DNA from: a virus
Lineage: Duplodnaviria > Heunggongvirae > Uroviricota > Caudoviricetes
Virus record (IMG/VR): IMGVR_UViG_648276657_000007
Coordinates: 1-26,895 of that record
Strand: one strand, 5' to 3'
DNA: 26,895 nucleotides
How positions within the stretch are numbered: position 1 is the first letter of the stretch; each line of letters starts with the position of its first letter. Positions 2,434-26,895 of this stretch are shown in pieces. A model generated the notes under the pieces. The model did not search any database, had not been told where the DNA came from, and worked only from the letters and a program-made list of their open reading frames with translations. A program made the position numbers and the translations under genes.

Positions 2434-2871
2434 ATGACAAAAGAGAAATTATATAAATTACTATATGATATTTGGAAAAAATCCAGTCGTGCTTATTTTT
2501 CTGGCATAGGCGTTATTATATGTAATAACCCTGATAGCCTTCCCATCACAAGTCTTCGGAATATAGACCCCATACAGAATGATTCCACATTAGAATTATT
2601 ATCAAGAATTTCCAATAAAAATAGCGAATACCATGATGGCTTTCACATCTTAGATGAAGCAGGAAATGTTACTTATACCGCACAATATTTCTCACCACCA
2701 ATCATAGAGAACATCAGTTTTGACAGTTCAAGACTCGTCGGTGGACGTTTTGTTGCTGCCCTTTATGGCTCTTGCATTGACGAGATTAAACTTACTGGGA
2801 TTGTAGGCGAAAGAGGTCGTCTTTCTATATTTGAGGCTGGTAAAGAAGTTTATTACGAGGAGTTGCAATGA
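2434..2871 (+). CDS. Minimal DAC-fold (DisA_N / diadenylate-cyclase-like) protein with non-canonical catalytic motifs; candidate signal generator or sensor
   Basis: 145 aa; SD AGGAAG 8 nt upstream of the ATG. By-eye alignment to CdaA/DisA DAC motifs: GIGVII ~ GALIVI, STLELLSRI ~ SSELLINI, HDGFHIL ~ HDGAVIM, AQYFSPP ~ AACYLPLS, LVGGRFVAALYGS ~ LGTRHRAAVGIS, IVGERGRLSIF ~ IVSEETGGVSV. Stop overlaps the next ATG (ATGA at 2868-2871). Confidence 0.55.
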   Translation: MTKEKLYKLLYDIWKKSSRAYFSGIGVIICNNPDSLPITSLRNIDPIQNDSTLELLSRISNKNSEYHDGFHILDEAGNVTYTAQYFSPPIIENISFDSSRLVGGRFVAALYGSCIDEIKLTGIVGERGRLSIFEAGKEVYYEELQ

Positions 2872-3461
2872 TAAACCTTCTCCCAATATGGAAAATAATC
2901 TCAAGAATCTCCGTTATCTATGCGACTGTCTGCGGTCTGATTTTATTGGGCATATATGATGAAAACACAACTTTCATGACAGTCCTATCAGTTGCATCTG
3001 GAGGTTTGTTTATTCTTAATACTATTGTGATATCAATTTTTTTCTTTGGGTGGCGAAAGTTATGGCAATGGTTCCCTAAACTAAATAACCTACTCTTCCC
3101 TGATTTGAACGGAACCTGGGATATGGTTATTCATTGGGAATGGGAAGATAAAAAAGGCACATCCCACGCACAAGCAACTATAAAGCAGGATTTTCTTAAA
3201 ATTGGAATGGATGTCGAAGCTGACGACTCCGATTCTCAGACATTGGTGGCTAAGCCTAAAAAGGATACCGAAACGGGGCGACCAGAACTTTACTACGTTT
3301 TTTTAACAACCCCCAAGCATAAGGCAGGTTTTGGTCCACAAGATCCTTACATGGGCACAGCTATTCTCAAGCTAAATCTTAATGATAAAGACGTGTTAAA
3401 TGGGAACTACTTTACAAGCCGTAAAACAGTAGGTCATTACGAGCTGACACGCATTAACTAA
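2868..3461 (+). CDS. Two-transmembrane-helix membrane protein with about 135-aa C-terminal soluble domain; candidate membrane-disrupting effector (Cap15 / S-2TMbeta-like architecture)
   Basis: 197 aa; hydrophobic helices at roughly aa 12-30 (ISRISVIYATVCGLILLGIY) and 37-60 (MTVLSVASGGLFILNTIVISIFFFGW), followed by WRKLWQW and a hydrophilic domain; translationally coupled to the DAC-like gene. Confidence 0.6.
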   Translation: MINLLPIWKIISRISVIYATVCGLILLGIYDENTTFMTVLSVASGGLFILNTIVISIFFFGWRKLWQWFPKLNNLLFPDLNGTWDMVIHWEWEDKKGTSHAQATIKQDFLKIGMDVEADDSDSQTLVAKPKKDTETGRPELYYVFLTTPKHKAGFGPQDPYMGTAILKLNLNDKDVLNGNYFTSRKTVGHYELTRIN

Positions 3462-24963: not shown

Positions 24964-25151
24964 ACCCTCCGGCTTTTCAGAAAGGTCAGAGCCTTTTTTA
25001 ACGGACTCTGTTTTTTGGTGCGGATAATGATTCCCTTACGCCCCTTACCGTGGGTGATGGTGAAGTCAATCGCCCTGGGGCTTTCGTTACGCAGTAACTG
25101 AGCAATACAACGCGGTTCACTCATAATCACAACCCCATCCACAAAAGCCAT
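24954..25151 (-). CDS. Hypothetical small basic protein (P2 orf78 position)
   Basis: 65-aa ORF between cox and B, overlapping the B start. Confidence 0.45.
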   Translation of the reverse strand: MAFVDGVVIMSEPRCIAQLLRNESPRAIDFTITHGKGRKGIIIRTKKQSPLKKALTFLKSRRVWK

Positions 25152-25399
25152 GCATCACGCTGTTCAACTGGTCGGTTATAAAACGCCTCTCGTACAGCGC
25201 GATTAAACTCTGGAATGAAAACCCACTTCTCACCGACACGGGCGTTCGGCTTACTTGGATCACGAAGCTCAATAACTGGCAATTTATTCTCTTTTACCAT
25301 CTTGACTACAGCCGTTTCTGGCTTACCAAGTAACTCTGCAAACTTAACCGTATGTACCGCATCAATCGGGTACTGAATCACATAGTCATTGACTTCCAT
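25127..25399 (-). CDS. cox: Cox/Apl-like excisionase and transcriptional regulator
   Basis: 90 aa; first gene of the early operon, divergent from C; KLPVIELRDP...WLLWMGL resembles P2 Cox (GKLPVIDMTDP...WLMWLGL) as I recall it. Confidence 0.75.
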   Translation of the reverse strand: MEVNDYVIQYPIDAVHTVKFAELLGKPETAVVKMVKENKLPVIELRDPSKPNARVGEKWVFIPEFNRAVREAFYNRPVEQRDAWLLWMGL

Positions 25400-25522
25400 T
25401 GATTAGCCCTTTTTGCTTTCGTGTTACCCTTATTAGATCCAGTCCCTTCTAGGTCGCCCTTGTCCTTTCTAGGGACTGGCTAACACACTCAAAAGGTCAC
25501 CAATACACAACCTTTTGACGGG

Positions 25523-25551
25523 AATATAAGTCACCAATGGGTTACTGTCAA
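25523..25551 (-). promoter_or_regulatory. Candidate early promoter Pe (sigma70-type) reading toward cox, flanked by direct-repeat operator half-sites
   Basis: Minus strand TTGACA (25551..25546), 17-nt spacer, TATATT (25528..25523). Direct repeats GGTCACCAAT at 25495-25504 and AGTCACCAAT at 25529-25538 flank the -10. The -35 abuts the C start codon. Confidence 0.5.
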
Positions 25552-25845
25552 ATGCAGACATTCGAAAAACTGAAAGCGATTAGGAAAGCAGAAGGCTTAA
25601 CACAGGCGAAATTCAGCGAAATTAGCGGGATAGCTCTAGGAACAGTCAAAAATTACGAAAGTGGGCATAAAGACCCTGGTCTCAGCATCGTTATGCGAGT
25701 CACAAATACGCCTTTATTTAAAAAATATACGCTCTGGTTAATGACTGGTGATACGTCACCACAAGCTGGTCAGATCGCGCCGGCTCTCGCACACATTGGG
25801 CAAAAACCAACAGAATCAGACCACTCCGAAAAACAGACTGGTTAA
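25552..25845 (+). CDS. C: Immunity repressor C (P2 C-family)
   Basis: Start chosen at MQTFEKLKAIRKAEGLTQ (97 aa); the C-terminus KYTLWLMTGD...GQIAPALAHIGQK resembles P2 C (KYTLWFMTNQ...GQIAPALAHFGQN) as I recall it. Confidence 0.75.
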   Translation: MQTFEKLKAIRKAEGLTQAKFSEISGIALGTVKNYESGHKDPGLSIVMRVTNTPLFKKYTLWLMTGDTSPQAGQIAPALAHIGQKPTESDHSEKQTG

Positions 25846-25914
25846 CACTCTATAAACATTACATTTTCACTATTTGTTACCAAGATGGTGAATACAGCGT
25901 CAGAGGGCTTTCTT

Positions 25915-26895
25915 ATGTCAATTAAGAAGCTCGATGATGGACGCTATGAAGTGGACATTAGACCTCGCGGTCGCGACGGAAAACGCATCCGCAGGAAATT
26001 TGAAAGAAAAGCTGAGGCTGTAGCATTTGAGCGATACACAATCGCCTACGCCAGCCAGAAAGAATGGGCAGGTCAGCGAGCAGATCGCAGAACTTTGAGT
26101 GAGTTGCTGGACATCTGGTGGAAATATCACGGGCAAAACCACGAGCATGGAACAAAAGAGTTTAATCATCTGCTCAAAACCATCAGCGGCATAGGTGATA
26201 TACCAGTGAGCCGGATGAGCAAAAGAGCTTTGATGGATTATCGTTCCATGCGACTACGTGATGGTATCAGTGCCGCAACGATAAACCGTGACATGTACCG
26301 ATTATCCGGCATGTTCACAAAATTAATTCAATTGGATGAATTTTCCGGGCAACACCCAATTCACGGACTGCCGCCACTGGCGGAGGCCAACCCTGAAATG
26401 ACGTTCCTGGAAAAAGCAGAAATCGAAAAACTGTTAAATGTTTTGGATGGTGATGACTTACTTGTCGCACTTTTATGTCTGAGCACTGGAGGAAGATGGA
26501 CGGAAGTTGCCACGCTAAAACCAGCACAGATTACAAATTGCAGGGTTACCTTCCTGAAAACCAAAAACGGTAAAAAGCGAACCGTGCCGATTTCTGAGGA
26601 ACTGGAGAAAAAAGTTAAAGAGGAGGCCAGCGCTAAATTATTCAAAGTTGATTATGAGAAGTTTTGCGGGATTTTACGCAGAGTGAAGCCAGATATACCA
26701 CCCAATCAGGCAACCCACATCCTGCGGCATACATTCGCAAGCCATTTCATGATGAATGGGGGCAATATAATCGCACTGCAACAGATTCTGGGACATGCGA
26801 GCATTCAGCAGACGATGGCCTATGCGCACCTTGCGCCTGACTACCTGCAAAATGCCGTCGCACTGAATCCTCTAAAAGGCGGAGTGACGTTATAA
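25915..26895 (+). CDS. int: Tyrosine integrase (P2 Int-family)
   Basis: Start chosen at MSIKKLDDGRYEVDIRPRGRDGKRIRRKF (326 aa); conserved R...HxxR...Y residues in ATHILRHTFASHFMMNGGNIIALQQILGHASIQQTMAYAH; the stop is at the window end. Confidence 0.9.
   Translation: MSIKKLDDGRYEVDIRPRGRDGKRIRRKFERKAEAVAFERYTIAYASQKEWAGQRADRRTLSELLDIWWKYHGQNHEHGTKEFNHLLKTISGIGDIPVSRMSKRALMDYRSMRLRDGISAATINRDMYRLSGMFTKLIQLDEFSGQHPIHGLPPLAEANPEMTFLEKAEIEKLLNVLDGDDLLVALLCLSTGGRWTEVATLKPAQITNCRVTFLKTKNGKKRTVPISEELEKKVKEEASAKLFKVDYEKFCGILRRVKPDIPPNQATHILRHTFASHFMMNGGNIIALQQILGHASIQQTMAYAHLAPDYLQNAVALNPLKGGVTL

Follow-up and report, generated by a model that had tools for sequence, protein, structure and literature searches.

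The window analysed here, a stretch of 26,895 nucleotides of viral DNA, carries an immunity switch that very probably is of the WΦ type (class III) and belongs to a P2-like prophage heteroimmune to P2. Over 801 bp (25100-25900) the window shares 99.4% identity with coliphage WΦ (AJ245959, AY135739), and over a dozen further P2-like phage records match the same interval at 99.1-99.6% identity; the remainder of the window is that of a P2-like prophage with ~96% identity to several Peduovirus genomes. Within the 221-bp switch two differences from WΦ were identified, one at 25460 (T here, C in WΦ) and one at 25539 (G here, A in WΦ). Judged from these comparisons, the switch is the already characterised WΦ switch with one minor natural operator allele, and not a new one. 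We assigned it to the immunity class of WΦ, which is class III in the scheme of PMC3448106, because the C protein is essentially identical, the operator half-sites and their spacing match, and both Cox and its 12-nt repeat match as well.

The genes on both sides of the switch agree with this assignment. Gene C, encoding an immunity repressor of 97 aa with an HTH_3 domain (34.6 bits), lies at 25552..25845 on the plus strand, and its product is 100% identical to WΦ C over 97 aa; when AJ245959 is projected onto the window by adding 25089 to its coordinates, the annotated start of the C coding sequence falls on 25552. The second gene of the lysogenic operon is int (25915..26895, plus strand), encoding a tyrosine integrase of 326 aa, and the end of the window (26893-26895) coincides exactly with its stop codon, so that attP or the prophage junction, along with any arm sites of Cox or Int located there, falls beyond the window. 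On the opposite strand, cox (25127..25399, minus strand) comes first in the early operon and encodes a 90-aa protein with a Phage_Cox domain (PF10743, 83.5 bits) that shows 100% identity to WΦ Cox. After cox come orf78 and then B as in WΦ, so that the gene order, int-C on one side and cox-orf78-B-orf80 on the other, is shared between the two. A sequence-only reading of this DNA had proposed an immunity type other than that of P2, and this is borne out by identities to the P2 proteins of 45% for C and 41% for Cox. The architecture described in that reading and its conclusion on immunity both stand, but the identity with WΦ had gone unrecognised and the lysogenic promoter Pc had not been placed.

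Among complete E. coli genomes, the switch (at least 95% identity over the 221 bp) was found in 260 of 5,426, in all cases on the chromosome. The two alleles of the window, 25460 T and 25539 G, occur together in none of the complete E. coli genomes, where the best match reached 99.5%. Position 25460 is located in the spacer between the two Cox repeats, and the same spacer varies in other relatives (25456, 25458). For annotation purposes, the WΦ immunity class can be given to this prophage with confidence; exclusion of WΦ-type phages, and not of P2, is predicted. WΦ is reportedly, in a paper of 1999, derepressible by the antirepressor of satellite phage P4, and by analogy the switch of this prophage should respond to derepression by the same protein. 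The published work on WΦ gains nothing from the switch itself, and the sole possible addition is a conserved pair of dyads.

Promoters, operators and Cox repeats

A consensus scan identified the early promoter Pe on the minus strand as TTGACA-17-TATATT, with the -35 hexamer at 25546..25551 and the -10 hexamer at 25523..25528. The match to consensus is 11 of 12, and no other site of at least 11/12 was found by the scan in the 26.9-kb window, compared to a mean of 0.55 such sites in windows simulated by a first-order Markov model. The early promoter annotated in AJ245959 maps to 25553..25517 on the minus strand and includes the -35, and the same -10 hexamer, TATATT, is found between O1 and the transcription start in oligonucleotide pEE938 of PMC1904263. 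The sequence-only claim of a near-consensus promoter aimed at cox was thereby confirmed. By homology to the end of the AJ245959 feature, transcription from Pe would start at approximately 25517 (minus strand). The Pe -35 directly adjoins the C start codon at 25552, and this layout, CAT immediately followed by TTGACA, is kept in relatives.

The opposing lysogenic promoter Pc was placed at 25399..25435 on the plus strand by mapping the AJ245959 annotation onto the window. This feature and the cox start codon of the opposite strand share their first base, 25399. Pc is weak; its best hexamers, read by eye, are TTGATT-17-TGTTAC, and no Pc site on the plus strand passed the consensus promoter scan. 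The Pe and Pc transcripts of WΦ overlap by 82 nt, and O2 of WΦ is located 60 nt from the Pc start (PMC1904263); from these two distances the starts in the window would lie at ~25517 for Pe and ~25436 for Pc. The promoters are thus arranged face to face, with Pe matching the consensus at 11/12 and both promoters annotated in AJ245959.

Two copies of the 9-mer GTCACCAAT, at 25496-25504 and 25530-25538, are 34 bp apart and flank the Pe -10, and no third copy occurs in the window, where 0.23 copies would be expected. However, an exact 9-mer direct repeat was obtained in ~7% of simulated 152-nt spacers, so that the repeat alone is suggestive and the weight is carried by homology. In WΦ, where the half-sites have been established experimentally by mutagenesis, EMSA and SPR, the operator consists of two 10-bp direct half-sites, TATTGGTGAC, placed 34 bp centre to centre and flanking the Pe -10 (PMC1904268), and the operator oligonucleotide reads CTTGACAGTAACC-TATTGGTGAC(O1)-TTATATTCCCGTCAAAAGGTTGTG-TATTGGTGAC(O2)-A (PMC1904263). 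The half-site TATTGGTGAC is the reverse complement of GTCACCAAT plus one base. In the window, O2 (25496..25505, minus strand) is TATTGGTGAC, identical to that of WΦ, and is located downstream of the Pe start, 34 bp from O1 (25530..25539, minus strand), which lies between the Pe -35 and -10 and reads CATTGGTGAC, matching the WΦ half-site TATTGGTGAC at 9 of 10 positions. The repeats flanking the -10 had previously been proposed as operators of C, and they do match the published WΦ half-sites; their size, in contrast, had been given as 9 bp, compared to 10 bp in the published work, and the exact repeat is limited to 9 bp in the window because of the natural substitution at 25539.

The WΦ C protein is a dimer that bends the DNA by ~60 degrees, and it binds a single half-site in vitro, whereas both are needed in vivo (PMC1904263). 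In the mutagenesis of the WΦ half-sites, repression was intact when one of them was mutated and abolished when both were (PMC1904268). Among close relatives of the window, the half-site core TTGGTGAC is invariant and changes are confined to the outer half-site bases, as at 25538 in E. coli YJ1 and at 25505, within O2, in Yersinia phage YpM_22. An additional reading of O1 as a pseudo-palindrome (GTAACC-N4-GGTGAC, 12/16 positions symmetric by eye) was rejected, as this symmetry is absent in Enterobacter phage ENT4 and Salmonella phage SI7 and within chance.

Closer to cox, the motif TTCTAGG (25447-25453 and 25467-25473) forms the core of an imperfect 12-nt direct repeat, and a direct-repeat search placed the two candidate Cox recognition repeats on the plus strand at 25442..25453 (GTCCCTTCTAGG, copy 1) and, 20 bp from it, at 25462..25473 (GTCCTTTCTAGG, copy 2). 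Both are identical to the corresponding sequences of WΦ, their distance downstream of the Pc start is ~6-38 nt, and no exact match to the 12-mer consensus was found elsewhere in the window. According to PMC5009727, which cites the Virology paper of 2009, WΦ Cox represses Pc and promotes excision without using the Cox boxes of P2, and instead has a 12-nt direct repeat of the Pe-Pc region as its recognition site. Since no second 12-nt direct repeat occurs in the Pe-Pc interval, we infer that the repeat described here is the one published for WΦ Cox; the earlier suggestion that the TTCTAGG boxes are Cox sites is in agreement with that publication. In close relatives, both copies are invariant and the spacer between them is variable. 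When ENT4 and SI7 were searched for equivalents of the Cox repeats, no convincing shared direct repeat was found, and the Cox site thus has no phylogenetic footprint beyond the close relatives.

The properties described for the promoters, the operator, the DNA bending and the Cox protein of WΦ would apply to the window as well, given the 99.4% DNA identity and the identical proteins. In such a switch, a WΦ-type form of the bistable C/Cox switch of P2-like phages (Peduoviridae), Pe and Pc would oppose each other across a spacer of 152 bp, with transcripts that would overlap by ~82 nt; the strong Pe on the minus strand would drive cox and the replication genes, and the weak Pc on the plus strand would drive C and int. 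In the lysogen, C dimers produced from Pc would bind O1 and O2, bend the DNA and exclude RNA polymerase from Pe. Once Pe is on, Cox would oligomerise on the 12-nt repeats, which lie a short way downstream of the Pc start, and block Pc, turning C and int off, and the convergent layout would add transcriptional interference. The operator sequence together with the C protein would fix the immunity type, which here would be that of WΦ (class III), unlike that of P2.

Chance and the operator allele at 25539

That the repeats and the promoter match arose by chance in an AT-rich spacer, with the true control elements located elsewhere, has next to no probability in our view. The simulated frequencies given above, for the 9-mer direct repeat as well as for promoter sites of at least 11/12, do show that either element can arise randomly. 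However, the same elements have been mapped experimentally in the 99.4%-identical sequence of WΦ, where the published operator mutagenesis already refutes a chance origin, and the elements of the switch are invariant in close relatives, with a geometry that is conserved across genera.

Within the WΦ-type switch, the G at 25539 alters the outermost base of O1 (half-site position 1, T to C, being the first base in the Pe direction). Of the 260 complete E. coli genomes with the switch, 13 carry the allele, as determined by megablast of the complete E. coli genomes with a 53-nt query built such that the A allele cannot seed a match. In contigs representing one genome per species, an exact-match scan with the 39-mer covering the G allele of O1 gave zero matches. 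The substitution also creates an ATG at 25537-25539, in frame and five codons upstream of the C start (MGYCQ-MQTF...), which opens an ORF of 102 aa. We therefore considered whether this minority allele weakens the binding of C, its position being within the published 10-bp half-site, or adds five residues to C by way of the new start, in either case giving a functionally altered switch, such as one with a leakier lysogen or one of a new subtype of immunity. Such an effect is very improbable. Point mutations in a single half-site of WΦ did not impair repression in vivo (PMC1904268), and relatives too vary at outer bases of the half-sites (25505, 25538) with the core invariant. Moreover, the C protein is unaltered in the window with the G allele, the normal C start is retained in the PGAP annotation of one G-allele genome, and the persistence of the G allele in several lineages is consistent with neutrality. 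The allele is probably neutral, which is also expected from the tolerance of single half-site mutations in the published work on WΦ.

Dyads A and B

The interval between the promoters contains two dyads. Dyad B (CCAGTCCCT / AGGGACTGG, 25439..25479) has arms at 25439-25447 and 25471-25479 that are complementary at 9 of 9 positions; it begins ~4 nt after the inferred Pc start and encloses both Cox repeats. It corresponds to an inverted pair around TTCTAGG noted in the sequence-only reading, which is real, although its arms are 9 bp and thus one base longer than the 8 given there. Dyad A (TCAAAAGGT / ACCTTTTGA, 25489..25518), absent from the list of that reading, has perfect 9-bp arms at 25489-25497 and 25510-25518, begins at approximately the Pe start and carries O2 in its loop. 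Dyad A is not mentioned in the WΦ papers that the analysis covered. Both dyads are located inside the region where the transcripts overlap and are predicted to form hairpins on either strand (z ~-2.3 to -2.6), and the hairpins predicted in the two leaders are exactly dyads A and B.

The dyads are conserved as dyads, with differing sequences, across 27 species-level relatives. In these, the 44 nt following the Pe -10 folded better than dinucleotide shuffles, with a mean z of -2.6 on each strand and values below -2 at 16/27 and 20/27 loci on the two strands. A positional scan of the same 27 relatives from -60 to +300 peaked in this same stretch, at a mean z of -2.8, and a second signal 40 nt further on (mean z -1.7) corresponds to dyad B; in all other scan windows the mean z was between -0.5 and +0.4, so that foldability exceeded the shuffles only at the position of dyad A and, more weakly, at that of dyad B. 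The stem sequences vary by lineage, with ATGTTGTTC/GAACAACAT, GCTTGGTGGT/ACCATCAAGC and TGGTTTT/AAAACCA among them. For dyad A, an alignment of 17 alignable sequences had 85.5% of its cells paired and compensatory changes in 5 of 11 pairs, and the observed covariation was reached in 0 of 500 shuffles. P2 carries a comparable dyad in its own, shorter overlap region. No Rfam family matched the dyads at the gathering threshold, and at a permissive threshold only hits at the level of chance were obtained.

Between the Pe -10 and the start, the discriminator (25519-25522) is G+C-rich (CCCG, CACC, CTCC and similar) throughout the clade of surveyed loci L008-L033, and its pairing with a conserved GGG ~30 nt downstream makes up the outer stem of dyad A. 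As a speculation, such a discriminator could render Pe sensitive to ppGpp.

These observations raise the question whether dyads A and B function as RNA hairpins, located at the 5' ends of the convergent transcripts or close to them, or as sites at the DNA level, and thereby provide a layer of control beyond C and Cox that would supplement the WΦ-type switch. We consider this possible, though doubtful. It is favoured by the predicted folding of the leaders, by the confinement of the foldability signal to the two dyads, by the compensatory changes between stems that differ from lineage to lineage and by the dyad of P2, and also by a published rise of ~100-fold in the Pe reporter output of WΦ when vector DNA was used in place of the phage flanks, which the authors left unexplained (PMC1904263). 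On the other hand, deletion of the left arm of dyad A, or replacement of its right arm by vector DNA, left repression by C unchanged (PMC1904263). No strand bias was found in folding energy or in the counts of G·U versus A·C pairs, and an RNA role of the dyads is hence not established. In dyad A, the outer stem has its beginning 1-6 nt past the -10 and thus upstream of where Pe transcription is expected to start, and this stem would consequently be incomplete in the Pe RNA. Furthermore, in some lineages the dyad may merely be a palindromic O2 operator, the 27 relatives are not independent samples, and an Rfam family match is lacking.

That the dyads are selected elements forming a third, so far undescribed layer of P2-type switches is, in our estimate, rather unlikely. 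If they have a role, it is possible that they act as 5'-proximal stem-loops that set the stability of the convergent mRNAs, as kissing hairpins through which sense and antisense RNAs pair, or as pause signals that reinforce transcriptional interference. Dyads of this kind could bear on how switches with convergent promoters reach bistability, and also on the published ~100-fold effect of the flanks on the Pe reporter.

Cargo of the prophage and comparison with other switches

The prophage of the window differs from WΦ in the cargo that it carries. Two overlapping plus-strand ORFs are located at 2434-3461, in the cargo hotspot known from P2 as Z/fun. One encodes a protein of 145 aa with a weak match to the diadenylate cyclase domain DAC (PF02457, 23.8 bits, below the cutoff of 27), and the other a 197-aa protein with two transmembrane segments (2TM) that matches the cyclic-dinucleotide receptor Cap15 (PF18153, 71.7 bits) and the 2TM effector of CBASS in PADLOC (3e-31). 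By these domain matches, the pair could be a minimal CBASS-like system with a DAC-like enzyme in place of the CD-NTase. The DNA of 2434-3461 had no near match in the collections of phage genomes and complete E. coli genomes. On the minus strand, 1-1902 encodes an ABC/AAA-type ATPase of 633 aa with a DUF4435-like C-terminal region, the stop codon of which is at the very start of the window. It matches NsnB (4e-20), AriAB (3e-18) and PtuA/GajA (1e-13 to 1e-18) in PADLOC, and resembles a fused defence protein of the PARIS-like or OLD-like kind, located within the same hotspot.

Outside the close relatives, ENT4 and SI7 encode C proteins that are 73% identical to that of the window. Both keep a promoter adjoining the C start, with CAT directly followed by TTGAC(A/T)-18-TATATT, and both have half-sites of the form ATTnGTGAC around the -10, 35 and 32 bp apart, respectively. 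A wider survey of contigs representing one genome per species yielded 68 loci with C proteins 36-71% identical to that of the window. The enterobacterial clade among them keeps the geometry, many of its members having direct repeats that are specific to the lineage and are placed around the -10 at a spacing of 30-35 bp, and in the Pseudomonas clade the repeats are 22-24 bp apart, like those of P2. Spacings of ~30-35 bp were observed in L019-L033 (Enterobacterales) and of ~22-24 bp in L049, L053, L055, L061, L063 and L072 (Pseudomonas). In several lineages each repeat is itself palindromic, as in CCTATATAGG and TCCCAnnTGGGA. The same geometry with differing repeats is what would be expected if the repeats are the specificity determinants of immunity types.

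As in the window, the lytic and lysogenic promoters of phage 186 are convergent, and Apl, the excisionase-like protein of 186, doubles as a transcriptional repressor (PMC1904263, PMC7498355). However, the CI repressor of 186 is a two-domain protein of 196 aa with inverted repeats and distal sites as its targets, and CII is part of the 186 switch (PMC3448106), whereas the repressor of the window is a protein of 97 aa with a single HTH domain and would bind direct repeats. No cII-like ORF was found between cox and B in the window, and the switch is not of the 186-type class.

P2 Hy dis shares with the window a P2-type C/Cox switch with two direct half-sites, but these are 8 bp long, are spaced by 26 bp and lie on both sides of the -35, not of the -10, and its C protein is 44% identical to that of WΦ (PMC1904268). 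P2 itself (NC_001895) resembles the window in having a small HTH repressor gene C followed by int and facing cox, a Pe -35 that overlaps or adjoins the C start, direct half-sites flanking the -10 and convergent Pe and Pc promoters. In contrast to the 10-bp half-sites of the window with their spacing of 34 bp, P2 has half-sites of 8 bp (GTTTAGAT) at a distance of 22 bp, and the overlap of its transcripts is ~35 nt, compared to 82 nt in WΦ. The Cox protein of P2 uses 9-bp Cox boxes, TTAAA(G/C)NC(A/C), as stated in PMC5009727. Neither GTTTAGAT nor the Cox-box consensus is present in the switch, and elsewhere in the window both occur at chance frequency. The window thus falls outside the immunity class of P2, from which it differs in C, Cox, half-sites and Cox boxes, and P2 and WΦ are heteroimmune.
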